Counted from the first letter of the stretch, positions 143 to 42,956 are shown. The stretch: 64,000 nt of DNA from Vulcanimicrobiales bacterium (GCA_038231455.1 JBBRLI010000009.1:71159-135158); one strand, 5' to 3'. The notes: generated by a model not told the origin, from the letters alone. A program made the numbers and translations.

Positions 143-982
143 TTGGATTTCGCGACGATTATTGGCCTTGTGCTAGCCTTTGGAGCCGTGGTTGCTTCGG
201 CATTCATCGGTGACCTCGACTTCAAGACCCTCTGGCAGCCCTCGGCGATCATTTTGGTCGTCGGCGGCACGTTCGGCGCGACGATCATCTCGTTTCCGCT
301 CAAGACGTTCTTGTCGGGGTTCGTGGGCGGATTCAAGACCGCGTTCCGCGAGCCGGTGTATCACGAAAAAGAGATTATCGCGACGCTCGTGTCGTTCGCT
401 GAGAAAGCGCGCCGTGAGGGGTTGCTCGCACTCGAAAACGAGGCGGCTGCACTCGAAGATGAATTCATGCGTAAAGGCATTCAGCTCGTTATCGACGGCC
501 GCGATACCGACATCATCCGCAAGATCTTGGAAACAGAAGTCGGTTTCGTCCAAGAACGCGGCGTGAAATCCGAGATGGTTTTCGGTACGCTCGGCGGGTA
601 CTCGCCGACGCTTGGCATCATCGGGACGGTGCTCGGCCTCATCGGCATGCTGCGCGCGCTCGGCGGACCCGCCGCAAGCGGCGCGGGGGGCGGCTCGATT
701 ACCGGCACGCTCGGCAATTCGACGGCTGAAGCATTCGTCGCGACGTTCTTCGGCATTTTGCTTGCGAACTTGCTGTGGCTGCCGATCTCATCGAAGATCA
801 AAGAACGCAACGCGCAACTCATGATGCTGCGCGAGATCATGATCGAGGGCATCCTCTCGATCCAGGCCGGCGACAATCCGCGCCTGCTCGAAGAAAAACT
901 GCATGCCTACCTCGATCCGAACGACCGTGCCTCGGATGTCGAAGAAGGCGGCGCCGTCGGCGAGCCGAGCTACCAGAACTAA
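143..982 (+). CDS. motA: Flagellar stator protein MotA
   Basis: 279 aa with a TTG start. The N-terminus MDFATIIG is typical of MotA, and the MotA/TolQ/ExbB channel core is present (GYSPTLGIIGTVLGLIGML ... FVATFFGILLANLLWLPI). It lies directly upstream of motB. Confidence 0.9.
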   Translation: MDFATIIGLVLAFGAVVASAFIGDLDFKTLWQPSAIILVVGGTFGATIISFPLKTFLSGFVGGFKTAFREPVYHEKEIIATLVSFAEKARREGLLALENEAAALEDEFMRKGIQLVIDGRDTDIIRKILETEVGFVQERGVKSEMVFGTLGGYSPTLGIIGTVLGLIGMLRALGGPAASGAGGGSITGTLGNSTAEAFVATFFGILLANLLWLPISSKIKERNAQLMMLREIMIEGILSIQAGDNPRLLEEKLHAYLDPNDRASDVEEGGAVGEPSYQN

Positions 983-988
983 CCGCTC

Positions 989-1765
989 GTGGCAATCATA
1001 ACGAAGGCCGCTGCCGCACGCGGCGACTCGCAGCAAAAGAAGAAGAAGGTCGCCGAAAAGATGGAGAGCGCCGGCATGATGCGCTGGCTGCTCACCTATG
1101 CCGACATGATCACCCTGCTGCTCGCACTCTTCATCATTCTTTTCGCTATCTCGACCATCAGCCGCGTCAAGTTTCAGACATTCGCAAAAGATATTTCAGC
1201 CGGCTTCAACAACGATTACGCAATCAACAATCCGCCCAACGGCGGCACGACGGGTTCGCAGACCGGGTCCAACGGCGAGGCAAACCTCAAAACGATCCAG
1301 ATTCAAGTCAAGAGCTACGTTCGTCAGAAACAGCTCGAAAAGAAAGTCGAAACGCGCATCGACAAGCGAGGCCTGGTTATCACCCTGCTCACCGATAAGG
1401 CGCTCTACGACAGCGGCTCGGCCGTGCTCAAGCCCGAGACCGCGCAATTGCTCGACGATGTCGTCAAACAGCTGCGCGCGCATAGCAATGAAATTCGCGT
1501 CGAAGGCAACACCGATACCGACCCGATTGCGACCTCGTCGTACCCGACCAACTGGGAACTCTCGACGGCGCGTGCGACGGGGGTCCTCCGGTACCTGGTC
1601 GAGCACGATCAATTCGACCCGCGTCGAATCTCCGCTGCGGGATACGGCCAGTTTCAGCCGCGAATCCCGAACGATACCGAGGCCCACAAGCAACTCAATC
1701 GCCGGGTCGATATCGTGATTCTTAACGGTCAGTTTGCACACGCCGAAGGCGGGGGAGCCCAGTAG
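989..1765 (+). CDS. motB: Flagellar stator protein MotB (OmpA-like peptidoglycan-binding C-terminus)
   Basis: 258 aa with a GTG start. It has a basic KKKK stretch and a single TM carrying the conserved Asp (LLTYADMITLLLALF). The C-terminal OmpA-like domain is recognisable (NTDTDPI ... NWELSTARA ... NRRVDIVI). Confidence 0.9.
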   Translation: MAIITKAAAARGDSQQKKKKVAEKMESAGMMRWLLTYADMITLLLALFIILFAISTISRVKFQTFAKDISAGFNNDYAINNPPNGGTTGSQTGSNGEANLKTIQIQVKSYVRQKQLEKKVETRIDKRGLVITLLTDKALYDSGSAVLKPETAQLLDDVVKQLRAHSNEIRVEGNTDTDPIATSSYPTNWELSTARATGVLRYLVEHDQFDPRRISAAGYGQFQPRIPNDTEAHKQLNRRVDIVILNGQFAHAEGGGAQ

Positions 1766-1768
1766 CCT

Positions 1769-2758
1769 ATGTCGATGCTCTCGCAAGAAGAAATTGACGC
1801 GTTAGTCAATCAGCTTGCCGCTCCCGATACCGAAGGGCCGGGCCTCGAAGGCCGCAAGATCAAATCGTTCGACTTCCGCTTCACCAAGCGCCTCGAGAAG
1901 TTTTCGAACAACCAACTGCAGACGTTGCGAACGCTCCACGACAACTTCACGCATTTGCTCAACAACTCGCTCTCGGTCTATCTGCGCACGCGGGTCGAGG
2001 CAACGATCGTCTCGATCGAACAAATCAGCTACGGCGACTTCATCGCCTCGATCGGCATTCCGTCGATCCTCTCGATCTTCTCCATGGACCCGCTACCGGG
2101 ATCGGGCATCGTCCAAGTCGATCTCAACCTCGTTTTCTCGATCATCGACCGGCTGCTCGGCGGTCCGGGTTGGTATCCGCAAAAGCTTCGCGATCTCACC
2201 GATATCGAGCGCACGCTCATGCAGCGCTTCATGGCCCGTATGCTCAATAGCTACCGCGAGTCGTGGAACTATCTGCTGACGCTCTCGCTCAAGATCGAGG
2301 CGCTGGACTCCAACCCGCAGTTCATCCCGCGCATCATTCCGCTCGACCAGATCGTGGCGTACGTCAGCTGCGAACTCAAAGTCGGCGATATGGCTGGCGT
2401 GATGAACTTCTGCCTGCCGTATCTTGTGCTGCAGTCGATCGGCCCGCAACTCTCCGACTTCCAGTGGTCACCCTCGGTCGTCGCTGGCCGCGGTATGACG
2501 GAAGAAGACATCGCGCAGCTCGTACGCAACGTGGAGCGCGCCGAAGTCGATCTGACGGTCGAACTCGGTCGCACGATCGTCTCGCTGCGCGACCTGATCG
2601 CGCTCCAGCCGGGCGACGTCGTGCTCTTCGATAAAGACGTGACGCAGCCGCTGATCGCAAAAGCCAACGACGTCGAGAAATTCAAAGTGTTTCCCGGATT
2701 GCACCGTGACAAGCTCGCGGTCTCGGTCGCCGAGATCATCGAAAGTGAGGACCAGTAA
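1769..2758 (+). CDS. fliM: Flagellar motor switch protein FliM
   Basis: 329 aa. The N-terminal CheY-P docking peptide LSQEEIDAL is present, followed by a FliM middle domain and a SpoA-like C-terminus. There is only a 3-nt gap after motB, so no fliL lies between them. Confidence 0.9.
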   Translation: MSMLSQEEIDALVNQLAAPDTEGPGLEGRKIKSFDFRFTKRLEKFSNNQLQTLRTLHDNFTHLLNNSLSVYLRTRVEATIVSIEQISYGDFIASIGIPSILSIFSMDPLPGSGIVQVDLNLVFSIIDRLLGGPGWYPQKLRDLTDIERTLMQRFMARMLNSYRESWNYLLTLSLKIEALDSNPQFIPRIIPLDQIVAYVSCELKVGDMAGVMNFCLPYLVLQSIGPQLSDFQWSPSVVAGRGMTEEDIAQLVRNVERAEVDLTVELGRTIVSLRDLIALQPGDVVLFDKDVTQPLIAKANDVEKFKVFPGLHRDKLAVSVAEIIESEDQ

Positions 2759-3637
2759 GTGTCTCCCGTTTCCTCGATGCGCGGAGTCGCCGATGCGATG
2801 TTCGCCTCGGCCGCCGCGGTGCTCGCAACGCTGGTCGACCGCACGGTCAATGCCGGCCCGACCGAAGAAGCCAAAAGCGAATCCTCGATTCGCGTTGAGG
2901 CCGACACCGTCGCGACGATGACCTCGATCCCAAGCGCAGGCGTTTCGTTCGTCGTTCGCTACGCCAAGGCGGATCTCGGTACCGTCGTGGGCATCATGCT
3001 CGGAACGCCGACCGGCGGCGAGCTCGATGCAATGCAGCTCTCGATCGTCTCTGAGACGGTCGCGCAGATTTCAAGCGCCATGGGCGAGCGCGTCGCGCAG
3101 AACATGGGCGTCTCGGCGGATGGAATTCATTCCGACGTCGTCACCGATGCGGGCACGTTTCCGGCGCCGCCGTTCGATTCGTACCGGTCGACGCTCGCAC
3201 TCGGCGAGGACATGAAGTCACTTCTTACTATCGATTTCGATGGGATGGCAAAAAACAAAATGGAAGGCCCGGCTCCGGCACCCGCTGCCCCGGCTCCCGC
3301 TCCGCGTGCGGCGAATCCGCCGCCCGCAACGCAGGCGGTCGCGTTCACCCAGATGGCCCCAACTCCGATCCGACCGGCCCCGCACGGCCATGCGAATCTC
3401 GATCTCGTGCACGACATTCCGCTGCAGATCTCCGCGGTGCTCGGTATGACCTCGCTCTCGCTACGCGACGTGGTCGCGCTCCAGAGCGGATCGGTCTTCG
3501 AACTCGACAAAGCCTCAACCGATCCGATCGACCTTTATGTGAACAACATCCTCATCGCGCGCGGTGAAGTGGTCGTGGTCGACGATAAATACGCGGTGAA
3601 GATCAACGAGCTCAACCCGCACGTGGAGAAAGTCTAG
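2759..3637 (+). CDS. fliN: Flagellar C-ring protein FliN/FliY (SpoA domain plus long N-terminal CheC-like extension and Pro/Ala linker)
   Basis: 292 aa with a GTG start immediately after the fliM stop. The C-terminus LDLVHDIPLQISAVLG...LYVNNILIARGEVVVVDDKYAVKINEL is a classic FliN/SpoA domain. The N-terminal ~150 aa aligns loosely to CheC repeats, but the E and N of the D/S-x3-E-x2-N motif are replaced. Confidence 0.85.
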   Translation: MSPVSSMRGVADAMFASAAAVLATLVDRTVNAGPTEEAKSESSIRVEADTVATMTSIPSAGVSFVVRYAKADLGTVVGIMLGTPTGGELDAMQLSIVSETVAQISSAMGERVAQNMGVSADGIHSDVVTDAGTFPAPPFDSYRSTLALGEDMKSLLTIDFDGMAKNKMEGPAPAPAAPAPAPRAANPPPATQAVAFTQMAPTPIRPAPHGHANLDLVHDIPLQISAVLGMTSLSLRDVVALQSGSVFELDKASTDPIDLYVNNILIARGEVVVVDDKYAVKINELNPHVEKV

Positions 3638-3652
3638 CGCCGGGCTAGCACG

Positions 3653-4006
3653 ATGGATACGGGGTTCTACCTGCGCGTCGTTTGGGCGTTTGCCCTCATC
3701 GCGCTCGTCCTCTACGGCCTGACGTATCTCGTGAAAATTCTCGGGCGCGGGCGTCTCATCGTCGCAAGCGAGCGTCGTTTAGTCTCGGTTATCGAATCGA
3801 CGATGGTGGCGCAAAATACCGCCCTCCACGTCGTGAAGATCGCCGACAAATTCTACTTGGTCGGAGGCGGGATGGGCCATATCGCGCTCATCAGTGAACT
3901 GCCCGCCGACTCCGTTGCGCCGTGGATCGAGCAGCAAAAGAAATCACTCGGCGATCAGCGCGATGCCCTCACATCGTTCCTCGCCCGCTTTCGGAAGCAA
4001 TCGTGA
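3653..4006 (+). CDS. fliO: Flagellar export protein FliO/FliZ
   Basis: 117 aa with a single N-terminal TM (VVWAFALIALVLYGLTYLV). It occupies the position directly before fliP, and its stop overlaps the fliP start. Confidence 0.7.
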   Translation: MDTGFYLRVVWAFALIALVLYGLTYLVKILGRGRLIVASERRLVSVIESTMVAQNTALHVVKIADKFYLVGGGMGHIALISELPADSVAPWIEQQKKSLGDQRDALTSFLARFRKQS

Positions 4007-4791
4007 TCCGTCGTCTCCTGCCGTATCTCTTCACGCTGATCGGCGCGCTTGCAATCGTGCTCGCTTTCACGCATCCCGCACTCGCGCAAACGGCGCCGAC
4101 GGCCCCAACGATCGCGATTCCGAAAATCAACTTCGGTATAACGGGTTCGAATAAGCCCGCAGACGTCGCGCTCTCGCTGCAGATCCTCGTCCTGCTCACC
4201 GTGCTGACGCTCGCGCCGACGCTCCTCGTCCTGCTCACCTCGTTCACGCGTATCGTCATCGTGCTTTCGTTCGTGCGCACGGCGCTCGGCACGCAGCAAG
4301 TGCCGCCGACCCAAGTCCTCGTCGGGCTCTCGCTGCTTTTGACGTTCTTCATCATGCAGCCGGTCATCACCGATGTGAACAAGAACGCCCTTCAGCCGTA
4401 TCTTGCAAACAAGATTTCGCAAGGGAAGGCTTTGGATACCGCGGCGAAGCCACTACGCAAATTTATGTTCAAGCAGACGCGCGAGAAAGACATCGCGCTC
4501 TTCTATTCGCTTTCCAAAGAGACGAAGCAGCCGCGCAATCAGGACGACGTCCCGACCTATTTGTTGATTCCGGCTTTCGTGATCTCCGAACTCAAGACGG
4601 CTTTTGAGATCGGCTTTGCAATCTACATTCCGTTCATCGTGATCGACATGGTGGTCGCCTCGGTCTTGCTCTCGATGGGCATGATGATGATTCCACCGGT
4701 CTTGATCTCGCTGCCGTTCAAGATTTTGATCTTCTTGCTCGTCGACGGCTGGAACCTGACGATCAACGCGCTCTTCCAGAGTTTCCGATGA
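4003..4791 (+). CDS. fliP: Flagellar export apparatus protein FliP
   Basis: The ORF track gives 3922-4791. I place the start at GTG 4003, which forms a GTGA overlap with the fliO stop. This gives a signal-like N-terminus (LFTLIGALAIVLAFTHPALA) followed by the conserved FliP core (LTSFTRIVIVLSFVRTALG, IPAFVISELKTAFEIGF). Confidence 0.9.
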   Translation: MIRRLLPYLFTLIGALAIVLAFTHPALAQTAPTAPTIAIPKINFGITGSNKPADVALSLQILVLLTVLTLAPTLLVLLTSFTRIVIVLSFVRTALGTQQVPPTQVLVGLSLLLTFFIMQPVITDVNKNALQPYLANKISQGKALDTAAKPLRKFMFKQTREKDIALFYSLSKETKQPRNQDDVPTYLLIPAFVISELKTAFEIGFAIYIPFIVIDMVVASVLLSMGMMMIPPVLISLPFKILIFLLVDGWNLTINALFQSFR

Positions 4792-5057
4792 CCTTCGCAA
4801 CCGCACTCTCGCTCGGGCGCGACGCGATCGTCGTGACGCTCTTGGTTTGCGCGCCCGCGCTCTTGCTCGGTCTCTTCACGGGTCTTGCCGTTTCGATTTT
4901 CCAGGCGGTGACGCAGATCCAGGAGCCGACGCTCACGTTCATCCCCAAAATCGTCGTCGTGGCGCTCGCACTCTTGTTCTTCGGACCATTTATGCTCGCG
5001 CTCTTAACCGATTTTACGAGTCGTGTCTTTTCCAATTTGCCGGCCTACATCAAGTAG
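4788..5057 (+). CDS. fliQ: Flagellar export apparatus protein FliQ
   Basis: 89 aa, two-TM protein with an ATGA overlap with the fliP stop. Size and position are canonical. Confidence 0.85.
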   Translation: MTFATALSLGRDAIVVTLLVCAPALLLGLFTGLAVSIFQAVTQIQEPTLTFIPKIVVVALALLFFGPFMLALLTDFTSRVFSNLPAYIK

Positions 5058-5063
5058 GGCCGA

Positions 5064-5846
5064 ATGACCGATCTGTACGGACTTGGCACCCCTCGTCTCG
5101 AGACCTATTTCCTTATCGCGATTCGCGTCGGGTTCATGCTCTCGCTCATGCCGGTGCTCTCGGCCCGTCAGATCCCGCCGTTGATCCGGATCGGGATCAT
5201 GTTGATCCTGACGTTTCTAATTGCCAAGCTCGTCCCGGTCGTCCATGCCTTGAGCCTGGGTCAACTCGCGATCGCCATCATCGAACAGGCGGTCGTCGGA
5301 CTGGTCTATGGGTTCGTCGCGTTCTTGGTGTTCAACGGGATTCAGTTTGCCGGTGAGATCCTCGACATCCAAATCGGCTATGGCGTCGTCAACGTCATCA
5401 ATCCGCAGACACAGCAGCAAGTGACGATCATCGGCGAATTCCAGCTTGCCTTCGCCACGCTCGTGTACTTGATCACGAATTCCCATCACTACCTCATCGC
5501 CGGTATCGTCGGATCGTTCAACCTCCTCCCGCTGCCGGATATCGCGCTCAACGCGGTGGCGCTCTCCGACGTCGTGCACTTTTTCACGCAGTCGCTCTTT
5601 ATCGTGTTTCAAATCGCCGCGCCCGTCGCCGTCGCGCTGTTCCTCGTCAACATTGCGCTTGCGCTGATGGCGCGCGTGGCTCCGCAGATGAATATCTTCG
5701 CCGTCGGGTTTCCGCTGCAAATCATGGTCGGTCTCCTGATGATCATCGTCTCGTTTCCGCTCCTCGGCACGGTACTGCCGCAAATCTTCAGCGACGTTCC
5801 GCAGCGCTTGGACACCGTCATGCGCGCGTTGCAGCCGGCAAAATAA
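5064..5846 (+). CDS. fliR: Flagellar export apparatus protein FliR
   Basis: 260 aa polytopic membrane protein lying between fliQ and flhB. Confidence 0.85.
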   Translation: MTDLYGLGTPRLETYFLIAIRVGFMLSLMPVLSARQIPPLIRIGIMLILTFLIAKLVPVVHALSLGQLAIAIIEQAVVGLVYGFVAFLVFNGIQFAGEILDIQIGYGVVNVINPQTQQQVTIIGEFQLAFATLVYLITNSHHYLIAGIVGSFNLLPLPDIALNAVALSDVVHFFTQSLFIVFQIAAPVAVALFLVNIALALMARVAPQMNIFAVGFPLQIMVGLLMIIVSFPLLGTVLPQIFSDVPQRLDTVMRALQPAK

Positions 5847-5849
5847 CCG

Positions 5850-6917
5850 GTGGCAAAGCCGGAGCAAACAGAGAAGGCGACACCCAAACGCGTTCGCGAG
5901 GCGCGCGAGCGCGGACAGGTTTCGCGCTCGGTCGATATCGGTGGCGCCTCGATTTTCCTTGCCATCATCACGACGATCCATGTCGGTTTCCTTGCGACGA
6001 TGGATATGATGGGCAAAGACTTCATCATCGCCCTGAGCAACCTCGGGACGCGCGAAGAAGTCAACATCTTTTCGACCTGGCATCTCTTCATTCGCTCGGG
6101 GCTGCCGTACGCGGCTTTGCTCGGGTTGATCTTTCTTGCGGCGCTAACGATCGGCGTCGGCGCAAATTTACTGCAGTTCGGGTTTCTCTTTTCTCCGAAG
6201 CTTCTGCAGCCGAAATTTAGCAAGCTCAACCCGCTCGCTGGAATCAAACGCACGTTCTTCTCGCCGCAGTCACTCGTCAATCTTGTCAAGCAACTGGCCA
6301 AACTCAGCGTCGTCGTGGTTATCGTGTATCTCGGCGTCAAGGACAACGTCTCGCATTTCATGAGCCTCGCGCACGTTGCTCCGCGCGAGATCATGCAGTT
6401 TACCGAAGGCATCTGCTACGGAATCGGCGTGCGCTTCGGAATACTGCTCCTGGCGCTCGGTATCGCCGACTATTTTTGGGAGAAGAAGCAACTCGGCGAT
6501 TCGCTCAAGATGACCAAGACCGAAGTCAAAGACGAGAACAAACAGTCCGAAGGTAATCCCGAGGCAAAAGCAGCGCTGCGCAACCGGCAACGTGCGATGG
6601 CGCGGCGCCGCATGATGGCCGCCGTCCCCAAAGCAACGGTCGTGGTGACGAACCCCACCCACTACGCAATCGCCCTGGAGTGGGACGAACTCACAATGGC
6701 CGCGCCCGTGATCACGGCCAAAGGGGCCGATCTGCTCGCCAAACGTATTCGCGAGATTGCCAAAGAAAACAACGTCCCGATTATGGAGAACCCGCCTCTC
6801 GCGCGCGCGCTCTACGACAAAGTGGCGCTCGATTCGCCGGTGCCGGCCGATCTCTATTCCGCCGTCGCGCAGGTCATTGCGTTCGTCTACCGTCTCAAAA
6901 ACAAAACAATCGCTTAG
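5850..6917 (+). CDS. flhB: Flagellar export switch protein FlhB
   Basis: 355 aa. The N-terminus EKATPKRVREARERGQVSRS is typical of FlhB. The NPTH autocleavage site is present (VVVTNPTHYAIAL), and the C-terminus reads PLARALY. Confidence 0.92.
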   Translation: MAKPEQTEKATPKRVREARERGQVSRSVDIGGASIFLAIITTIHVGFLATMDMMGKDFIIALSNLGTREEVNIFSTWHLFIRSGLPYAALLGLIFLAALTIGVGANLLQFGFLFSPKLLQPKFSKLNPLAGIKRTFFSPQSLVNLVKQLAKLSVVVVIVYLGVKDNVSHFMSLAHVAPREIMQFTEGICYGIGVRFGILLLALGIADYFWEKKQLGDSLKMTKTEVKDENKQSEGNPEAKAALRNRQRAMARRRMMAAVPKATVVVTNPTHYAIALEWDELTMAAPVITAKGADLLAKRIREIAKENNVPIMENPPLARALYDKVALDSPVPADLYSAVAQVIAFVYRLKNKTIA

Positions 6918-6989
6918 CGCATTTGTAAGATAATCAAGACCGTCAACGGGCGGTAGCCGCGTTGTTGCTAGCGAACCCCCACCGAACAA

Positions 6990-8393
6990 ATGCTAAGTTT
7001 TGCGACGTCGCCCGTTAGCGTACGTCAACGGACAATCGGTTTCGGTGCCCTCACCCTGCTCGGTCTTACGACGCTGCTGGGATTCGCATTTGCGCGTGTC
7101 CCGCTTCCCGGAGTCGACGTGTTCGTGCCAATGGTCGCCGCCGCGGTGATCGTTCTGGGCTTGGTGATGTGCTTGATCGTCGCCGGCCAGGCGCTGGTGG
7201 CGCGCAACGCCTCGCTTGCGGTCTTTGCCGGTTCGTTTATCACGGGCGTCTTCATGGTCGTCCCGCAGATCCTCATCTACCGCTTGGGTGGGGAACGCGG
7301 CTGGATCGGGGCAGGCAATGTCTCTTCCGTCTGGTCTTGGATCTTCGCGCAAATTCTCGAGGCCGCCAGTATCGCGGTTTACTTGTGGTTCGATACCCGT
7401 TCGATTCGGCGTCTCACCGCGCGCGAGATTTGGCGCCTTCTCATCGCGGTCGTCGTGGTCGCATCGGTTGCCGCGGGCGCGCTCGGATCACTTGCGATCT
7501 TCGGGACGGATGTCTTGCCGACGATCGCGTACGCTACCGGCGTCGTAAAGAACGTCACAGCCGAGCGTATTTTTGTCCTGTTGATCGTCGTTCGTCTGGG
7601 GATTCTCGTTGCGGCTGCGATCGTCACGCGTGGTCGAACGGTCCTCAACCTGTGGCTGATCGTGGTGCTCGCCGCGTTGTTGGGCGATGTCCTGATCACG
7701 CTGACGGCGGGGATGCGCTTTAGCGTCGGCTGGTATCTCGGTCGGATCGAGGACCTCCTCGCCGTTGGGGCGATGTCGATCGCCTATTTGATCGAACTCA
7801 CCACGACGTCGGCGGGACTAGCCGAACTTGCGACGATCGACGGACTAACGGGCGTCGGTAACCGGCGACTCTACGACGACCGGCTCCTCACCGCATACCG
7901 GAATGCGATTCGGCATGAGCAGCCACTCGGGCTGGTCCTTATCGACGTGGATCATTTTAAATCGTTCAACGACGCCTACGGCCACCTCGCAGGCGATGAC
8001 GCCCTTCGCGTCATTGCTCGCGTGATGAAAGAGTCGCTCGGCCGCTCGGTCGATATCGTCGCTCGCGTCGGAGGCGAAGAATTCGCGGTCCTCTTGCCCG
8101 CGTCTGACGAAGCCGGCGCCCTGGTCGTGGCCGAGCGGATCCGGCGCGGCATCGAGGCGCTCGCAATTCCGCAGGCGGGCGCCCCGGCGGGCGTTCTTAC
8201 CGTCTCGCTAGGCGCGACTTCGCTAGCCGCCGATGACTCGACGTCGAGTTTTGCTGCCCGCGCCGACGCCGCGCTCTACCGGGCAAAGGCGCTCGGCCGC
8301 AACCGGACGGTCACTTCGAGCGGCCGCCTCGGGGGGTTGCCGCGGCTGTGTAAAATCGCAGGTTCGCGGCATCACAATCGGCAAGCCAAGTAG
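6990..8393 (+). CDS. Polytopic membrane diguanylate cyclase (GGDEF domain, GGEEF active site, RxxD I-site)
   Basis: 467 aa. About 270 aa of hydrophobic helices are followed by DGLTGVGNRRLYDD...DVDHFKSFNDAYGHLAGD...RSVDIVARVGGEEFAVLL...ALYRAKALGRNR. It is inserted between flhB and flhA on the same strand. Confidence 0.88.
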   Translation: MLSFATSPVSVRQRTIGFGALTLLGLTTLLGFAFARVPLPGVDVFVPMVAAAVIVLGLVMCLIVAGQALVARNASLAVFAGSFITGVFMVVPQILIYRLGGERGWIGAGNVSSVWSWIFAQILEAASIAVYLWFDTRSIRRLTAREIWRLLIAVVVVASVAAGALGSLAIFGTDVLPTIAYATGVVKNVTAERIFVLLIVVRLGILVAAAIVTRGRTVLNLWLIVVLAALLGDVLITLTAGMRFSVGWYLGRIEDLLAVGAMSIAYLIELTTTSAGLAELATIDGLTGVGNRRLYDDRLLTAYRNAIRHEQPLGLVLIDVDHFKSFNDAYGHLAGDDALRVIARVMKESLGRSVDIVARVGGEEFAVLLPASDEAGALVVAERIRRGIEALAIPQAGAPAGVLTVSLGATSLAADDSTSSFAARADAALYRAKALGRNRTVTSSGRLGGLPRLCKIAGSRHHNRQAK

Positions 8394-8418
8394 TGTGAGC
8401 GCGCCTTGGTGCCGATAC
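8391..8418 (+). promoter_or_regulatory. Possible sigma-28-like promoter upstream of flhA (weaker -35)
   Basis: TAGT (8391-8394), a 16-nt spacer, then GCCGATAC (8411-8418). It ends 31 nt before the flhA TTG start, with an AGGAGC ribosome-binding site in between. The -10 element is good and the -35 is poor. Confidence 0.25.
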
Positions 8419-8449
8419 CTACAGTAATGCTAGGAGCGGGGAGTTTTCT

Positions 8450-10582
8450 TTGGCCGTAGCGGCCTCAACACCGAAGTCACCAAGCCTGCTTACACGCATC
8501 GGCTCTGCCGGTCATGTGTGGGTTGCTGCTGCCTCCGTCATCCTCATCATCCTGATGATCGTTCCGGTTGCCCCTTGGGTGATCGATCTGCTGCTCTCGG
8601 TGAACATCACCTTGGCGCTGGTCATCATGCTGACGACCCTCTATACGGAGAACGCGCTCGCGTTCAGCGTCTTCCCAACGCTGCTGCTCATCGTCACGCT
8701 CTTCCGGCTCTCACTCAACATTACGGGCACGCGCTCCATCTTGCTGCACGCCTACGCGGGCAAGATCATCGAAGCGTTCGGGAACGTCGTCGTGGGCGGC
8801 AACTACGCCGTCGGACTCGTTATCTTCGCGATCCTCATCATCATTCAGTTCGTCGTGATCACGAACGGCGCCGGCCGCGTCGCAGAAGTTGCCGCCCGAT
8901 TCACGCTCGATGCGATGCCCGGTAAACAGCTCGCGATCGACGCCGATCTCAACGCCGGACTGATCACTGAATCCGACGCGCGCCAACGGCGCAAAGATAT
9001 TCAGCGCGCAGCCGACTTTTACGGCGCGATGGACGGTGCCTCGAAGTTCGTCCGCGGCGATGCGATCGCTGCAGTCATCATCGTTTTCGTCAACATCATC
9101 GGCGGTTTTGTCGTCGGCGTGCTGCAACTGCATCTCGATCCCGGTACCTCGGCGTCGCGCTTTACGCTCTTGACGATCGGTGAGGGAATCGTTACCCAGA
9201 TTCCGGCGCTGCTCATTTCGACGGCGACCGGTATCATCGTTACGCGCGCGGCCTCGGAATCGAGCTTCGGCGCCGAGGTCTCAAAGCAACTCGTCCAAGA
9301 GCCGCGGGCGCTTGCGATTGCGGCCGGGCTGCTGCTGATCTTCGGGCTCTTCGGACTTCCGCCGTTCTACATGTTCACGATGGCGGCGATCCTCGCCGTG
9401 CTGTTCTTCCGCACCCGCGGAACGAAAGCGCGCAATGCTCTCGTCGCATCGGGCGGCGCGGGAGCGCTGCTCGGCGCCGCCGGCGGTTCCTCGACGGCCT
9501 CGCCGAGCGTGAAGCCGGCCGAATCCGTCGTCCCACTGCTCAGCTACGACCCGATGGAACTCGAGATCGGCTTCGGTCTCATCCCGCTCGTCGACGTCAG
9601 CCAAGGCGGCGATCTGCTCGAACGCATCACGATGATCCGTCGGCACGCCGCGCGCGAACTTGGGATCGTGGTTCCGCCGATCCGCGTTCGCGACAACCTC
9701 CAGTTAAAGCCCTCGACGTACATCATCAAAATTTACGGACTCGAAGTCGCTCGCGCCGAGGTCATGGTCAGCCGACTGCTTGCGATGAATCCCGGCACCG
9801 CCACCAATGGTATCGAGGGTATTCCGACCGTCGAACCGGCGTTCAACTTGCCGGCACTTTGGATTCCCGAGAGTACCCGCGGCGATGCCGAGATGGCCGG
9901 CTACACCGTCATCGATCCGACGAGCGTCATCGCAACGCATCTCACCGAAGTGATCAAAGGGCACGCCCCCGATCTCCTCGGCCGCCAAGAAGCATCGGCG
10001 CTCCTCGACAACGTCAAACAGCATTATCCGGTGGTCGTTGAGGAACTCGTTCCCAATTTGCTCACGGTCGGCGAGATCCAGCGCGTCCTCCAGAATCTCT
10101 TACGCGAGCGGATCCCGATCCGCAACCTCTTGCTGATCCTGGAGAACCTCGCCGACGGCGCACGACAGTCCAAAGACATCGACTTCCTCACGGAAAAAGT
10201 GCGCGCCGCAATGGCCCGCCACATCTGTGCGGAGTACGCCGAAAACGGTCTGCTCTCGGTCATCACGGTCGACCCGCGTCTCGAGCAGCTGCTCGGCGAA
10301 GCGGTTCGGCGCGGCGAGGACGCGTACGCACTACTCGATCCGAATACCGTGGCGAAGATCTACGGCTCGCTCACCAAGCAAATGCAGCTCGCGCAGCAGG
10401 CTGGCCTGCCGCCGATCGTCCTGGCCTCACCGTCCGTGCGGTTAGCGCTCAAACGCCTCACCGAACGCGCGGCTCCGAGTCTGGTCGTCCTTTCGTACTC
10501 CGAAATCGCGCCGGGTCTGCGCGTCGAGAGCATCGGCCAAATCACGACGACCGATGAAGTCGCCGAAACGGCAAGTGTGTGA
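8450..10582 (+). CDS. flhA: Flagellar export gate protein FlhA
   Basis: 710 aa with a TTG start. The conserved FlhA TM region is present (FPTLLLIVTLFRLSLNITGTRSILL, FVVITNGAGRVAEVAARFTLDAMPGKQLAIDADL), followed by the cytoplasmic FlhA-C domain. Confidence 0.93.
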   Translation: MAVAASTPKSPSLLTRIGSAGHVWVAAASVILIILMIVPVAPWVIDLLLSVNITLALVIMLTTLYTENALAFSVFPTLLLIVTLFRLSLNITGTRSILLHAYAGKIIEAFGNVVVGGNYAVGLVIFAILIIIQFVVITNGAGRVAEVAARFTLDAMPGKQLAIDADLNAGLITESDARQRRKDIQRAADFYGAMDGASKFVRGDAIAAVIIVFVNIIGGFVVGVLQLHLDPGTSASRFTLLTIGEGIVTQIPALLISTATGIIVTRAASESSFGAEVSKQLVQEPRALAIAAGLLLIFGLFGLPPFYMFTMAAILAVLFFRTRGTKARNALVASGGAGALLGAAGGSSTASPSVKPAESVVPLLSYDPMELEIGFGLIPLVDVSQGGDLLERITMIRRHAARELGIVVPPIRVRDNLQLKPSTYIIKIYGLEVARAEVMVSRLLAMNPGTATNGIEGIPTVEPAFNLPALWIPESTRGDAEMAGYTVIDPTSVIATHLTEVIKGHAPDLLGRQEASALLDNVKQHYPVVVEELVPNLLTVGEIQRVLQNLLRERIPIRNLLLILENLADGARQSKDIDFLTEKVRAAMARHICAEYAENGLLSVITVDPRLEQLLGEAVRRGEDAYALLDPNTVAKIYGSLTKQMQLAQQAGLPPIVLASPSVRLALKRLTERAAPSLVVLSYSEIAPGLRVESIGQITTTDEVAETASV

Positions 10583-10589
10583 TGCGGCT

Positions 10590-10616
10590 TAAGCTCGGTT
10601 GCTCTTCGGCCGATAG
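10590..10616 (+). promoter_or_regulatory. Candidate sigma-28 (FliA/SigD)-type promoter upstream of the PilZ-cheYCAW block
   Basis: TAAG (10590-10593), a 15-nt spacer, then GCCGATAG (10609-10616). This is a near-perfect fit to TAAA-N15-GCCGATAA. The -10 ends only 10 nt before the annotated ATG at 10627, which implies either a near-leaderless mRNA or a later start. Confidence 0.45.
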
Positions 10617-10626
10617 CGTAGAGTAG

Positions 10627-11301
10627 ATGCTACTTCGCGCGTTGGGTTTTAAGCCCAAGGTCGATGCGAGTTTGCGCCACCGTATGCCGGCGCTCCATTC
10701 GTTTGTCGACATGACCCTTGCAAAAGTGCTTCGCCCCGCCTCCGTCTGCGTTGAAACCATCGGGTCAACGTCGTTCCAGACCTCGACTCCACCTGGCCTC
10801 ACAGCCGGAATGGGCGCGGTCTTCAGCTACTCAACGGATCAAGGCAAGTACCGGTTCGCTGCAAAGTGTACCGCGATCAAAGGACCGCACGCGACCTTCG
10901 CGATGCCGTCACGGATCGAGGAAATCCAGAAATTCGGCGGGCAAAAACGCGCCAGCGTTCGGCTCGACACCACGGTCTCCGGACAGTGGCGTTTCGCTCC
11001 CGCCGGAAAAGGCATCGGAACGCTGAGTAAAGGTTCGATCACCGACATCAGCCGCACGGGCGCGTCGTTGATCATCGACCGTGAATTAAACCAAGGAACG
11101 CAGGTTGAGCTTCTCGTGTCGCTCAACACGACATCGCCGATGTCGTTTCTCGGCGAAGTAAAACGCGTCCAGAAAATCCCGGCATCGGGCAAGGTCTCAC
11201 ACGGACTGATGTTTCACGGCATCCGCCCGGACGAAGATAAAAAGATCATGGAATATATTAACAAACGGCAAGCGGAGCGGCGCAGCCGAGGTCTCGCCTA
11301 G
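10627..11301 (+). CDS. YcgR/MotI-like PilZ-domain c-di-GMP receptor
   Basis: 224 aa. The PilZ motifs RASVR and DISRTG are separated by 27 residues, and the domain is preceded by a ~100-aa N-terminal domain as in YcgR. The start is uncertain: in-frame ATGs also occur about 19 and 28 codons downstream. Confidence 0.8.
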   Translation: MLLRALGFKPKVDASLRHRMPALHSFVDMTLAKVLRPASVCVETIGSTSFQTSTPPGLTAGMGAVFSYSTDQGKYRFAAKCTAIKGPHATFAMPSRIEEIQKFGGQKRASVRLDTTVSGQWRFAPAGKGIGTLSKGSITDISRTGASLIIDRELNQGTQVELLVSLNTTSPMSFLGEVKRVQKIPASGKVSHGLMFHGIRPDEDKKIMEYINKRQAERRSRGLA

Positions 11302-11313
11302 AGTGGAGCGGCA

Positions 11314-11676
11314 ATGAGTAAGAAGGTGCTGATCGTCGATGACGCAGTCGTCATGCGCATGATGATCAAAGGCATCCTATCCAAGAACGGATTTGATGTC
11401 GTCGGTGAAGCGCAGAACGGCGCGGAAGCCGTCGATAAATATAAAGCGCTAATGCCCGATCTTGTGACCATGGATATGGTCATGCCCGAGATGGACGGTA
11501 TTACGGCGGTCAAGCAAATCATGGCCGCCGATCCGAACGCGAAAATCATCATGTGCACCTCGATGGGCCAACAAGCGCTCGTCGTCGAGGCGATTCAGGC
11601 TGGCGCGAAGTCATTTATCACCAAGCCCTTCCAGCCGCCGAAAATCCTCGAAACTATCAACAAGGTGCTCCAATGA
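11314..11676 (+). CDS. cheY: Chemotaxis response regulator CheY
   Basis: 120 aa single receiver domain: KVLIVDDAVVMR ... LVTMDMVMPEMDG ... FITKPF. Confidence 0.92.
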   Translation: MSKKVLIVDDAVVMRMMIKGILSKNGFDVVGEAQNGAEAVDKYKALMPDLVTMDMVMPEMDGITAVKQIMAADPNAKIIMCTSMGQQALVVEAIQAGAKSFITKPFQPPKILETINKVLQ

Positions 11677-12278
11677 CACCCTCACTGCAGCTCACTGAAC
11701 TGCAGAAAGACGCGCTCAAGGAGGTCGGCAACATCGGTGCCGGCCACGCCGCGACCGCGCTCTCGCAGCTGCTCAACACGACGATCAAACTCTCGGAGCC
11801 CTCGATCGACGTGATCAAGTTCCGCGATCTCTCGACCCGCGTCGGGTATGAGAATCGCATCGTTGCCGCATTGCACATGTACGTACGCGGCGAAGCGCCG
11901 GGCCAGATGGTCGTGCTCTTCGATCGCGAGAACGCGCTCGAATTTGTGAACGTGTTCATCAAGCGCATCATCGGCGACATCCAGATTTTCGACTCGATCG
12001 TCGACTCGACGCTCAAGGAACTGGGCAACATCATCGCTGGGTCGTATCTCACGGCGTTGATATCGCTAACGGGCATCAACCTCTTGCCGTCGGTGCCGAC
12101 GCTTTCGTACGGCACGATTCAAGCGGCGTTTCGTACGCTGATGTCGATCCTGCCCGACCAAGACGTCTTTTTGATCGAATCCGCCTTCCTCGATAAGGGC
12201 ATGACGGTCTCGGGCCAGTTCATTCTCATCCCGGAAACCGGATCGCTCGAACCACTGCTCTCCGTCTTCGGGGTGTAG
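11673..12278 (+). CDS. cheC: CheC-family CheY-P phosphatase
   Basis: I start it at ATG 11673, an ATGA overlap with the cheY stop (the track ORF begins at 11553). Both D/S-x3-E-x2-N-x22-P active-site motifs are intact: DALKEVGN + 22 aa + P, and STLKELGN + 22 aa + P. Confidence 0.85.
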   Translation: MTPSLQLTELQKDALKEVGNIGAGHAATALSQLLNTTIKLSEPSIDVIKFRDLSTRVGYENRIVAALHMYVRGEAPGQMVVLFDRENALEFVNVFIKRIIGDIQIFDSIVDSTLKELGNIIAGSYLTALISLTGINLLPSVPTLSYGTIQAAFRTLMSILPDQDVFLIESAFLDKGMTVSGQFILIPETGSLEPLLSVFGV

Positions 12279-14433: not shown

Positions 14434-14943
14434 ATGGCAATGGTCGACGATAAGAAACAGCTCTCCGGGCAGACGATGCAGGTCGTGAGCTTCGCACTTG
14501 GGAGCGAGGAGTACGGCGTCGATATCGCCCAGGTCCAAGAAATCAATCGCATGGTTTCGATCACGCACGTTCCGCGTGCGCCGCACTTCATGGAGGGCGT
14601 GATCAATTTGCGCGGCCAGTTGATCCCGATCATCGATCTGCGTACGCGCTTTGGGATGCCGCGCGCCGAACACTCGAAAGCAACGCGCATCGTCGTCACC
14701 GAAGTCGGGACGAAACGCGTCGGGATGGTGGTCGACTCGGTCTCCGAAGTGCTGCGAATTCCGATCGAAAATATCGAGGATGCGCCGGATATGATCTCGG
14801 GCGTCGACACGGAATACATCCGCGGCGTCGGCAAGATCACCGACCGCTTGATCATCATGCTGGATCTCGGCCGCGTAATTTCGCTTTCCGAAAAAAGTGC
14901 ACTCGATGCAACGATGGATTCTGCGGAAATGGCTGGAACCTAA
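14434..14943 (+). CDS. cheW: Chemotaxis coupling protein CheW
   Basis: 169 aa with the CheW fold signature (VVSFALGSEEYGVDIAQVQEI ... VINLRGQLIPIIDLR). There is a 3-nt gap after cheA. Confidence 0.9.
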   Translation: MAMVDDKKQLSGQTMQVVSFALGSEEYGVDIAQVQEINRMVSITHVPRAPHFMEGVINLRGQLIPIIDLRTRFGMPRAEHSKATRIVVTEVGTKRVGMVVDSVSEVLRIPIENIEDAPDMISGVDTEYIRGVGKITDRLIIMLDLGRVISLSEKSALDATMDSAEMAGT

Positions 14944-15916: not shown

Positions 15917-16159
15917 GTGACCAGTTCCATTCCCGGCTCCGAAAACGGCACGCCGCCCAAACCTGACAAACCGTCCGTCGCCCTCCAGCGCACGTTCGTG
16001 TGGCTCGGGATCGCGAGCGCCTCGGCTGCGGTGACCTATCTTGTTATTCGCGCGTCAATGCGACGCGCGCCGGTCGACCCGACGAGCGAGCGCATTCAAT
16101 CGCTCATCGACGAAGCCAACCGCCTGTTGCGGACGCTCGACGATAAAAAGCACGGTTAG
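15917..16159 (+). CDS. Small hypothetical membrane protein
   Basis: GTG start, 80 aa, with one clear TM (FVWLGIASASAAVTYLVI) followed by an amphipathic helix. Its sequence looks more protein-like than the overlapping N-terminal extension of the rlmD ORF. I recognise no homology. Confidence 0.35.
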   Translation: MTSSIPGSENGTPPKPDKPSVALQRTFVWLGIASASAAVTYLVIRASMRRAPVDPTSERIQSLIDEANRLLRTLDDKKHG

Positions 16160-36481: not shown

Positions 36482-36778
36482 ATGGAGCAAGAGTTGACCG
36501 GAGCCGAGGCGCTGGATGCGCTATCGCGACGCGGACCGTGCCGATTGCAGATTCTGCAAGACGGAGCGGAGCGCGGCTCGTATACCGGCACGATCTATGC
36601 CACCGAGAGCAGCTTTGCGTTCCACGCCAGCGCCAAAATGGGTTTTACGCCCGCTCACGGGATCGGCGAGAATCCCTGGACGATCGTCAGCGTCGAACCG
36701 ATGATCCTCGAAATGCTCGCGGACGGCGGTCACGTCGTTCTGCGCCTCTCCGAGGCAAAACAGCAAGCTCCGGCTTAG
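36482..36778 (+). CDS. Hypothetical small protein
   Basis: 98 aa from ATG 36482 (MEQELTGAEAL...). I recognise no family. Its stop overlaps the stop of the convergent ArsR gene. Confidence 0.35.
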   Translation: MEQELTGAEALDALSRRGPCRLQILQDGAERGSYTGTIYATESSFAFHASAKMGFTPAHGIGENPWTIVSVEPMILEMLADGGHVVLRLSEAKQQAPA

Positions 36779-37128
36779 CCCGACCCGCGCGTTGGCGCCC
36801 ACACGCTCGAGGTGAAGTACTCGGGAAAGAGCACCGAGAGCGCAGCGTCAATCCGGGCGGCAGCATCGGGGGTCAGTTCGTAGCGAAGCGACGTCTTCCG
36901 ACGCTGCGCACGGACGAGACCCGCCTCGCGGAGGATTCGCAAGTGATGCGAGACCGTCGGCTGGTTCAGTGGGAGCCGCGCCGTGAGTTCGCCGACCGCG
37001 AGCCCGTCGATTGCGATCAGGCGCAGAATCGCCAAGCGCTGTGCATCAGCGAGGGCTTTGAACAGCTTCGCCTCAGCGGCGAGTGGGGGACCGGCGGGCG
37101 AGGCGGTCATGCCGCGCAGGAAGCTCAC
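36775..37128 (-). CDS. ArsR/SmtB-family transcriptional regulator
   Basis: The winged HTH is present (LFKALADAQRLAILRLIA ... LTARLPLNQPTVSHHLRILREAGLV). An alternative start lies 6 codons downstream. Confidence 0.85.
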   Translation of the reverse strand: MSFLRGMTASPAGPPLAAEAKLFKALADAQRLAILRLIAIDGLAVGELTARLPLNQPTVSHHLRILREAGLVRAQRRKTSLRYELTPDAAARIDAALSVLFPEYFTSSVWAPTRGSG

Positions 37129-37181
37129 CCGGCTAGTTTGCCAACTCTATCGATAAGCGTCAATAGAAGGGCGAAAAAACC

Positions 37182-37210
37182 TTGACGGACCTTGGCCCCG
37201 GTGGTATCCT
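37182..37210 (+). promoter_or_regulatory. Candidate sigma-70 promoter for rpoB (extended -10)
   Basis: TTGACG (37182-37187), a 17-nt spacer ending in TGG, then TATCCT (37205-37210). This would give a leader of roughly 120 nt before ATG 37338. Confidence 0.45.
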
Positions 37211-37337: not shown

Positions 37338-41240
<3,903 letters not shown>

Positions 41241-41291: not shown

Positions 41292-41324
41292 AAATCCCCG
41301 GCAGCGATGCCGGGGATTTTTTTT
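41292..41324. terminator. Strong rho-independent terminator after rpoB, shared with the convergent glycosyltransferase gene
   Basis: The 12-bp stem AAATCCCCGGCA / TGCCGGGGATTT has a GCGA loop and is followed by TTTTT on the plus strand. The minus-strand stop codon lies at 41323-41325, inside the T-tract. Confidence 0.75.
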
Positions 41325-42852: not shown

Positions 42853-42956
42853 CCGCCGACCGCTTGGAAATTCCCGTTGCGTCGAAACCTGGCAGGGAGT
42901 TCGTGGGTACGTGCGTGAGACGTTTTCCTTACGATTTTCCAGGAGGTCATGACCGG

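Follow-up and report, generated by a model that had tools for sequence, protein, structure and literature searches.

A predicted diguanylate cyclase between flhB and flhA, and a conserved PilZ gene after flhA, in a flagellar cluster of Candidatus Eremiobacterota

Two predicted cyclic di-GMP proteins in the flagellar cluster

We analyzed a 64-kb stretch of DNA (JBBRLI010000009.1:71159-135158; hereafter, the window) from an uncultured soil bacterium of the lineage Candidatus Eremiobacterota, also known as WPS-2 or Vulcanimicrobiota. The window begins at motA and holds just the distal half of a flagellar gene cluster. According to its open reading frames (ORFs) and Pfam, the order on the plus strand is motA-motB-fliM-fliN-fliOPQR-flhB-MASE4-GGDEF-flhA-PilZ-cheY-cheC-cheA-cheW. 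Two of these genes are our subject: the MASE4-GGDEF gene, which encodes a predicted diguanylate cyclase and lies between flhB and flhA (we call this position the slot), and the gene for a PilZ-domain protein immediately after flhA. An earlier note, made from the sequence of the window, had described a 467-amino-acid polytopic GGDEF protein between flhB and flhA on the same strand, with a GGEEF active site and an RSVD I-site five residues upstream, and a 224-amino-acid PilZ protein after flhA, with intact RASVR and DISRTG motifs 27 amino acids apart and with cheY-cheC-cheA-cheW next. Gene coordinates, translations, Pfam matches, and hydrophobic segments confirm all of this.

The cyclase matches Pfam's MASE4 (PF17158) over residues 43-270 (8.3e-19, 68.3 bits versus a cut-off of 28.4) and GGDEF (PF00990) over residues 281-439 (6.5e-42, 143.5 bits versus a cut-off of 23.8), as well as NCBIfam's TIGR00254 (7.3e-47, 159 bits versus a cut-off of 37.4), and it contains about 6-7 hydrophobic 19-mers. 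In the translation (...LGRSVDIVARVGGEEF...), the I-site RSVD is followed by IVARV and then by the active site GGEEF. R352, D355, and G361-F365 do not vary in either of the two sets of family members compared (9 and 18 proteins), and the RxxD I-site (RSVD at 352-355) is present in all 18 family members checked. The DxD metal site (D319/D321, as DVD), N327, and D336 are invariant in alignment A1. N327 and D336, which we take to correspond to N335 and D344 of PleD, have the N+9 spacing of that protein, which argues for cyclic di-GMP (c-di-GMP) rather than cyclic GMP-AMP (cGAMP) as the predicted product. We also considered whether the protein might be a cGAMP synthase of the Hypr-GGDEF type, but rejected this on account of the invariant aspartate at the specificity position. 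To judge by its sequence, the protein has every hallmark of an active, product-inhibited diguanylate cyclase.

The PilZ protein matches Pfam's PilZ (PF07238) over residues 106-212 (2.5e-10, 41 bits versus a cut-off of 22.5). Its motifs are R108-A-S-V-R112 and, 27 residues later, D140-I-S-R-T-G145. Across 24 homologs (36-91% identity), R108xxxR112 and D140xS142xxG145 are invariant, and so is much of the C-terminal helix and tail (...INKRQAERRSRGLA). An AlphaFold 2 model (pLDDT 83) has two beta-barrels and a C-terminal helix. Foldseek matched the full length of this model to PlzD/VCA0042, MrkH, MotI, PP4397, YcgR, and PlzA in the PDB (E from 1e-9 to 1e-6), and the best PDB match to the sequence profile was MotI/YpfA of Bacillus subtilis (E = 1.3e-4). 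The protein has every sequence hallmark expected of a c-di-GMP-binding receptor of the two-barrel YcgR/MotI class. The earlier note's term, YcgR/MotI-like, thus holds for the two-barrel model and for the full-length matches (Foldseek and, as described below, hhalign), but it does not extend to Pfam's models of the YcgR N-terminal domain. NCBIfam gave just a weak, sub-threshold match to TIGR02266. We also noticed shorter proteins of about 143 amino acids (P0107-P0119), named YcgR by JGI, that have no N-terminal barrel and are matched to the family through its PilZ-containing C-terminal half alone (58-65% identity). One of them is on a 334-kb contig.

To place the PilZ gene, we compared the window to 80 loci of 20 kb each, which were obtained by scanning species-representative genomes. 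These loci and the PilZ homologs are all, or essentially all, from metagenome-assembled genomes of the Eremiobacterota type; the names on the PilZ homologs are Candidatus Velthaea, Elarobacter, Baltobacteraceae, and Eremiobacteraeota. In all 80 loci, the PilZ gene comes immediately after flhA, and in nearly every one it is followed by cheY. A profile search of 1.84 billion representatives found 35 proteins at E ≤ 1e-30, which we consider the family proper. Below these, after a gap, come proteins of about 220 amino acids that include Clostridial "flagellar brake proteins" (from Caldicoprobacter and Thermincola). When we compared the PilZ family to the Clostridial PilZNR+PilZ brake proteins with hhalign, the match had a probability of 99.8% (E = 2e-28) and covered 195 columns (27-228); both the N-terminal barrel and the QRxxRxxGL tail at the C-terminus were within the aligned part.

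The brake homolog of Thermincola potens (ADG82372) is encoded in the order fliPQR-flhB-flhA-flhF-flhG-(91 amino acids)-PilZ-cheB-cheA-cheW-cheC-cheD-...-sigma factor. Similarly, in the flgB-fliA locus of Lachnospiraceae (Eubacterium and Roseburia), consecutive locus tags encode FlhB-FlhA-FlhF-FlhG-PilZ-CheB-CheA-CheW (PMC3720852, Table S1). The window's PilZ protein resembles these Clostridial proteins in its length, in its RxxxR/DxSxxG motifs, in its tail, and in the place of its gene between the export-gate and che genes. However, it is only about 23% identical to the Clostridial brake, and its N-terminal barrel is too diverged for Pfam's PilZNR. The surroundings differ as well: the window has neither flhF, flhG, nor the 91-amino-acid ORF of Thermincola, so that PilZ comes directly after flhA, and the che genes are cheY-cheC-cheA-cheW instead of cheB-cheA-cheW-cheC-cheD.

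The earlier note was correct that the window contains no flhF (SRP54-type), flhG (ParA/MinD-type), or fliL: none was found in Pfam scans of the likely genes, which included most ORFs of 150 amino acids or more. Also, flhF and flhG are absent from all of the 20-kb relative loci that we inspected. But the earlier note's view that PilZ occupies the place of flhF and flhG is not supported. Since the Clostridial order is flhA-flhF-flhG-pilZ-che, the order flhA-pilZ-che in Eremiobacterota would be a known architecture minus flhF and flhG, and PilZ, a full-length homolog of the Clostridial protein, would not have moved into their slot.

Presence, decay, and selection of the slot cyclase

In contrast to the PilZ gene, the cyclase gene is not a regular member of the cluster. 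None of the 69 informative species-representative loci (63 that show the end of flhB and the start of flhA, plus 6 without flhB within reach) has an intact slot cyclase. In L002, L003, and L011, with PilZ proteins that are 51-57% identical, flhB is followed directly by flhA, and there is no cyclase in any of L002-L008 or L011. The close relatives L006-L008 have a flhB-flhA spacer of 148 bp. Because the spacer of L006 retains homologs of both ends of the window's insert region, this is a clean absence of the cyclase. L017, which is a GTDB species representative and a close relative of the window, has a gap of 496 bp with a cyclase remnant of 146 amino acids (at 7328-7768 of that locus). The remnant has lost MASE4, and internal deletions took the segment with the DxD motif and the asparagine and aspartate, but GGEEF and a C-terminus of the window's type (...AGSRRHNRQAK) were kept. 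We read this remnant, from its sequence, as a snapshot of gene decay. The earlier note had presented cyclase and PilZ as a pair of writer and reader; with the cyclase deleted in L006-L008, decayed in L017, and intact in none of the 69 loci, they do not form a conserved unit.

Outside those 69 loci, intact MASE4-GGDEF proteins of 455-458 amino acids are encoded in the slot in L009, L010, L014-L016, and L100. L100 was found by scanning metagenomes with an alignment of slot cyclases; the matches listed included generic GGDEF proteins and at least one further locus of the L009 type, which is L100. Nucleotide identity of the flanks gives the tree ((window,(L006,L017)),(L009,L014)), with L011 outside. 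The simplest history for the window's clade would be a single ancestral presence followed, within one sub-lineage, by decay in L017 and full deletion in L006.

Where it is intact, the cyclase is under purifying selection. Between the window and L009 or L014, nucleotide identity is about 80-90% in flhB and flhA, 72-76% in the GGDEF domain, and 40-57% in MASE4; amino acid identity is 89% for FlhB, 97% for FlhA, 69-71% for GGDEF, and 37-39% for MASE4. The cyclase and its flanks have similar rates of synonymous substitutions (dS), which are high and saturated. The ratio of nonsynonymous to synonymous rates (dN/dS) between the window and L009 is 0.40 for MASE4 and 0.16 for the GGDEF domain. Between L009 and L014, it is 0.125 for the whole cyclase (0.15 for MASE4 and 0.07 for the GGDEF domain), and pilZ has a similar value (0.13). 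These low ratios (about 0.1) suggest that the slot cyclase is functional where it is intact and that MASE4, its sensor domain, is evolving fast. We also considered xenologous replacement of the cyclase, which is 50% identical between loci whose flanks are 89-97% identical. This is not needed: dS is similar, and the excess is in dN and mostly in MASE4.

More distant cyclases are also found between flhB and flhA: P0125 in L097 (36-39% identical) and P0131 in L099 (33% identical, or 41% in the best local alignment). Relative to the window, the flanks of L097 and L099 are 54-56% (FlhB) and about 81% (FlhA) identical. Slot cyclases occur in at least four divergent lineages. Other Eremiobacterota proteins with MASE4 and GGDEF domains, P0126 and P0133, share GGEEF and the I-site with the window's cyclase but are only 33-40% identical to it. 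They are encoded at another conserved locus, which is not flagellar and has the order major facilitator superfamily (MFS) transporter-cyclase-aminoacyl-tRNA synthetase-VIT1 (seen in L012 and L013). In a neighbor-joining tree, they are the sister clade of the slot cyclases. Bootstrap support is 100% for the window with the L009-type proteins, for P0125 with P0131, and for the clade from the other locus, and 67% for the slot and other-locus clades together.

The cyclase's absence from L002-L008 and L011 first suggested a recent chance insertion, which is also how the earlier note would have read its absence from close relatives. The absence is real in the closest relatives, but the slot cyclases of L009, L010, L014, and L100, and of the distant L097 and L099, led us to drop this explanation: a gene that is missing from the closest relatives and present in distant ones is old and repeatedly lost. 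The data fit a history in which the gene entered the slot a single time, early on, by duplication or relocation and was then lost many times. Probably, the cyclase was inserted long ago, and a minority of lineages keep it under purifying selection while others have lost it or are losing it. By its distribution, the slot cyclase is an accessory gene, an optional extra that is dispensable in the nearest relatives.

The flhB-flhA junction and the surrounding cluster

None of the three gaps in this part of the window (72 bp between flhB and the cyclase, 56 bp between the cyclase and flhA, and 44 bp between flhA and pilZ) contains a terminator-like hairpin. A scan of 5800-11800 for consensus promoters and terminators gave no more matches than expected from shuffled sequence, and none in the three gaps.

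Across the 63 loci that show both genes, the gap between flhB and flhA is 60 bp or less in 42, 61-200 bp in 7, 201-1000 bp in 3, 1.5 kb in 1, and above 3 kb in 10. (In the six further loci, no flhB is within reach.) The largest gaps hold 4-7 kb of cargo and come from one branch (for example, L004 1734-7855, L028 936-7870, L029 3269-7857, and L040 2259-7848). In L004 and L005, a 6-kb block of unrelated genes, mainly on the minus strand, separates flhB from flhA; one of these genes is for phosphatidylserine decarboxylase. The cargo that we sampled in six junction loci includes proteins with Cu_amine_oxidN1 domains, a fusion of capsule-synthesis and pyruvyl-transferase domains, and unknowns; it is mostly on the minus strand, and none of it was recognized as related to c-di-GMP.

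The spacer upstream of flhA contains a conserved element. In the window, its core is GCCGATA at 8411-8417, between the stop of the cyclase gene (8393) and the start of flhA (8450). A weakly conserved upstream half-site at 8390-8395 overlaps the cyclase's stop codon, and the last ~14 codons of the cyclase extend into the conserved flhA-upstream sequence. GCCGAT is invariant in an alignment of seven otherwise diverged flhA-upstream spacers. Its position relative to the start of flhA is the same in 27 of the 28 loci in which flhB and flhA are at least 71 bp apart or flhB is out of reach (the exception is L031), and it is absent from that position where the two genes abut. The element has the form CTCACG-N15-GCCGAT[GA]A in most loci (see also L034 6488-6515 and L040 7794-7821) and ...GTGCCGATAC in the window's group. 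The motif TCACG-N15-GCCGAT[GA]A was found 29 times, versus 5.7 expected, and mostly at the flhA-upstream position. The classical -10 sequence of sigma-28 (FliA/SigD) promoters is GCCGATAA, and we infer that the element looks like a sigma-28-type promoter.

Two other sites are similar. First, there is a near match, TAAG-N16-ACCGATAG, upstream of motA (107-113). Second, another GCCGATA lies at 10609-10615, 12 nucleotides before the PilZ start; since the flhA-pilZ gap is often only about 4-20 nucleotides in relatives, this one may be due to chance.

In L097, the spacer between the cyclase and flhA (4832-5090) is 260 bp and contains GC-rich hairpins. The same interval holds two copies of a GC-rich hairpin pair, GAGCCTCCGCTGC...GCTCGGAGG and GGTT(C/G)CGCCCGTTCGG, and the flhB-cyclase spacer of this locus (3393-3457) opens with GCCGATAG directly after the flhB stop. 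A division between flhB and flhA would have a parallel in Pseudomonas putida, where one operon ends in fliR-flhB and a separate operon starts with flhA and has its own promoter (bioRxiv 10.1101/2021.08.29.457346).

The earlier note had the cyclase and PilZ genes co-transcribed with the flagellar genes. In favor of this, the two genes share a strand, and the short gaps around them hold no terminator-like hairpin. But the sigma-28-like element before flhA, and the up to about 7 kb of often opposite-strand cargo at the same junction in sister lineages, make co-transcription doubtful. Most likely, given these features of the spacers, the cyclase is the last gene of a motA...flhB unit and PilZ is the second gene of a flhA-led unit. 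Writer and reader may then be on adjacent transcripts.

Coordinates of the cluster are given in Table 1; for the che genes, we used the gene calls of contig L001, which is identical to the window. The order from motA to fliR is identical in all relatives compared. In the window, fliM comes directly after motB, and FlhA is 97-98% identical to those of close relatives. Overall, the order agrees with that of Thermincola and Lachnospiraceae, but flhF and flhG are absent, there is no closing sigma-factor gene, and in one branch flhB and flhA are split.

Table 1. Positions in the window of flagellar and chemotaxis genes, the slot cyclase, and associated features
Feature	Position	Strand	Basis or comment
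motA	143-982	+	Pfam MotA_ExbB
motB	989-1765	+	Pfam MotB_plug+OmpA
fliM	1769-2758	+	Pfam FliM+FliMN_C
fliN/fliY-like	2759-3637	+	Pfam FliMN_C
fliO	3653-4006	+	Pfam FliO
fliP	about 4003-4791	+	Pfam FliP
fliQ	4788-5057	+	Pfam Bac_export_3
fliR	5064-5846	+	Pfam Bac_export_1
flhB, export-gate switch protein	5850-6917	+	Pfam Bac_export_2, 3.7e-116
flhB-cyclase spacer, 72 bp	6918-6989	+	No terminator-like hairpin; partly homologous to left part of L006 spacer
MASE4-GGDEF, predicted diguanylate cyclase, 467 amino acids	6990-8393	+	MASE4 about 7116-7799; GGDEF about 7830-8306
I-site RSVD (8043-8054), five codons, active-site GGEEF (8070-8084)	8043-8084	+	Translation
Promoter-like element before flhA	8387-8420	+	Spacer alignment
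flhA, export-gate protein, TTG start	8450-10582	+	Pfam FHIPEP, 1.6e-260
Two-barrel PilZ protein (predicted), 224 amino acids	10627-11301	+	Pfam PilZ; RxxxR 10948-10962; DxSxxG 11044-11061
cheY	11314-11676	+	Pfam Response_reg
cheC	about 11673-12278	+	Pfam CheC/CheX
cheA	start 12325 or 12397, end 14430	+	Pfam Hpt+H-kinase_dim+HATPase_c+CheW
cheW	14434-14943	+	Pfam CheW

We made three other observations about the window. First, in the fliN/fliY-like protein (292 amino acids), the C-terminal FliMN_C domain is the only part that was matched. The ~200 residues at the N-terminus have no CheC-type match, and a separate cheC follows cheY. Second, an ORF of 80-85 amino acids without a Pfam family (about 15917-16159, plus strand) lies between the che genes and a TRAM/tRNA-methyltransferase gene, and comes after an aminotransferase gene where that is present. 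It is kept in the Eremiobacterota loci with listed gene calls (L001 6884-7126, L002 14467-14709, and L011 16617-16859). Third, a full-length rpoB with all of the Rpb2 domains (37338-41240, plus strand) is not followed by rpoC, which would be unusual, as the rpoBC pair is almost universal. The neighboring ORFs are at 36538-37185 and 41323-45617. After rpoB come a GT4 glycosyltransferase on the minus strand and an M16 peptidase. No Pfam family matched the ORF upstream, so that neither rplJ nor rplL was recognized.

Proposed roles of the cyclase and the PilZ protein

Our best explanation, to which we give a probability of about 60% as a whole, is as follows. The window would contain the distal half of a Firmicute-type fla/che cluster. 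The PilZ protein would be the phylum-wide counterpart of the "flagellar brake" of Clostridial flagellar operons, in that gene's usual place but without flhF and flhG. In this branch, the flhB-flhA junction would be both an operon boundary and an insertion hotspot. And the accessory slot cyclase at that boundary would be a facultative writer beside a constitutive reader, the standard brake PilZ. As the whole phylum has PilZ but only some lineages have the slot cyclase, PilZ must normally answer to other cyclases.

In the window's bacterium, the cyclase would be made from the tail of the motA...flhB transcript and would reside in the membrane, where it would make c-di-GMP in response to a signal sensed by the fast-evolving MASE4 domain, within a feedback limit set by the RxxD I-site. 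The c-di-GMP would bind at the RxxxR/DxSxxG site of the PilZ protein, which would then engage the motor, at the MotA stator in the manner of MotI or at FliG/FliM in the manner of YcgR, so that rotation is slowed or disengaged. Beyond the intact motifs, we infer these steps from sequence.

Several results weigh against this explanation. For the PilZ protein, the TM-scores of the Foldseek matches are only about 0.4 because the orientation of the two domains in the model is uncertain (pTM 0.48). Also, the N-terminal barrel matches neither YcgR/PilZN (PF07317) nor PilZNR (PF12945) in any of the 24 members at E values up to 10. For the promoter-like element, the sigma-28 assignment comes from the -10-like core alone, as the upstream half-site differs from TAAA. 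Away from the flhA-upstream position, the bipartite motif has only background matches in the 80 loci, with no tie to other flagellar promoters, and no fliA/sigD gene was located in these 20-kb loci. Since the window's cyclase-flhA gap lacks a terminator, read-through and co-transcription are possible. For the cyclase's history, all of the slot cyclases group together with just 59% bootstrap support, so there might have been two independent insertions into the same hotspot. Conversely, four divergent lineages have kept the cyclase in this slot under purifying selection, which implies that the position matters more than the word "accessory" suggests. Finally, the phylum's sole cultured member is without flagella (PMC9758169).

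Another explanation, which we consider possible but clearly less probable, is that the cyclase is a passenger in a permissive hotspot and feeds the general c-di-GMP pool (for biofilm or envelope functions) without any special tie to the flagellum or to PilZ. The same junction does carry unrelated cargo in sister lineages (Cu_amine_oxidN1 proteins, capsule synthesis, phosphatidylserine decarboxylase, and unknowns), but the cyclase is the only cargo seen there on the operon strand with tight spacing. Its loss without loss of the flagellar genes, a sister clade at a non-flagellar locus beside an MFS transporter, and the very fast evolution of MASE4 (37-39% amino acid identity, versus 89% for FlhB) are all as this explanation would expect. 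On the other hand, the cyclase recurs at the junction in at least four divergent lineages, albeit as a weakly supported single clade, and it is under purifying selection there (dN/dS of 0.07-0.15). Furthermore, motor control by c-di-GMP via PilZ proteins encoded in flagellar operons is well established (PMC8203827, PMC3913639, PMC10304486).

The earlier note favored a dedicated, self-contained circuit, in which the cyclase and PilZ are co-transcribed with the stator, C-ring, and export-gate genes. Each flagellated cell would then have its own writer and brake in fixed stoichiometry. We think this is unlikely. The short same-strand gaps without terminator-like hairpins, the intact functional motifs of both proteins, and the purifying selection on a cyclase in exactly this slot in L009, L010, L014, and L100 (as well as its presence in the distant L097 and L099) are in its favor. 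However, PilZ is universal in the phylum while an intact slot cyclase was found in 0 of the 69 species-representative loci, and the nearest relatives have a complete flagellar and PilZ operon with the cyclase lost or decayed. The cyclase and flhA are also separated by the conserved promoter-like element and, in L097, by the 260-bp spacer with its hairpins.

It seems about equally doubtful that PilZ acts on the downstream-encoded CheY, CheC, CheA, or CheW and tunes the switching bias, rather than being a brake or clutch. The genes cheY-cheC-cheA-cheW almost always come right after PilZ, and FilZ, a PilZ protein from a flagellar cluster, binds a CheW homolog (PMC10304486). But FilZ has a single domain, whereas the window's PilZ has two barrels and is homologous over its full length to the MotI/"flagellar brake" class, and the Clostridial brake gene also precedes che genes, so position does not discriminate. 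We would give a similarly small chance to a stronger claim: that the slot proteins are a lineage of flagellum-dedicated cyclases, made with FlhB and FlhA and located at or near the basal body, whose MASE4 reads the state of the membrane or of assembly and which supply local c-di-GMP to the PilZ brake, and that this lineage was gained once, early in one branch of Eremiobacterota, and lost many times.

Returning to the facultative cyclase beside a standard brake, some known systems are similar in part. MotI (also known as DgrA or YpfA; PDB 5VX6), the c-di-GMP-dependent clutch of B. subtilis that acts on MotA, also has two barrels, with the c-di-GMP motifs in the second, but its sequence is only remotely similar to the window's PilZ, whose putative partner is MotA or FliG/FliM. 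The motI gene is not known to lie inside the fla/che operon of B. subtilis. In Escherichia coli and Salmonella, YcgR and PdeH (YhjH) are both encoded by class-3 genes of the flagellar regulon. This is the nearest concept, as a reader of c-di-GMP and an enzyme that metabolizes it are tied to flagellar expression. However, that enzyme is an eraser, an EAL phosphodiesterase, and the genes are scattered regulon members rather than operon neighbors, whereas in the window the enzyme is a predicted writer. The PilZ protein's fold matches YcgR (5y6f, E = 6e-7), although Pfam's YcgR N-terminal domain is not detected in it. PilZ-domain effectors are also encoded inside or at the edge of other flagellar clusters: FlgZ in Pseudomonas (flgAMNZ), MotL in the lateral system of Shewanella, and FilZ in the lateral system of Pseudoalteromonas (PMC3913639, PMC8203827, PMC10304486). 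These genes are at other positions in their clusters, MotL as well as FilZ is a single-domain protein, and no cyclase was reported as an operon neighbor. A full-text search of the literature turned up such PilZ genes but nothing on a GGDEF gene in the flhB-flhA interval, which is not proof of absence; leads from Xanthomonas, Geobacter, Rhodobacterales, and Actinobacteria were not relevant.

The control of motors by c-di-GMP via PilZ brakes is well known, but the matching of particular cyclases to particular effectors ("local signaling") is still debated. Genomes would offer a natural example of this pairing in a cyclase that is repeatedly kept in a slot of the flagellar export operon beside that operon's PilZ, and they would do so in a phylum without a flagellated isolate. 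If dedicated slot cyclases do exist, they would be a genomically hard-wired module for local signaling. Since the cyclase is dispensable in the nearest relatives, though, we view it as a modest variant of flagellar c-di-GMP control and not as a new control principle. For the Eremiobacterota, our analysis points to a Firmicute-type flagellar-brake PilZ as a fixed member of the operon without FlhF and FlhG and, in one branch, to a flhB-flhA junction that would be an operon boundary and insertion hotspot with a conserved promoter-like element. As read from these genomes, the PilZ protein is of a known kind and in its standard place, and what is new is the embedded cyclase. This gene looks functional and recurs in several lineages, but it can be dispensed with, and it and its presumed reader are probably not co-transcribed.

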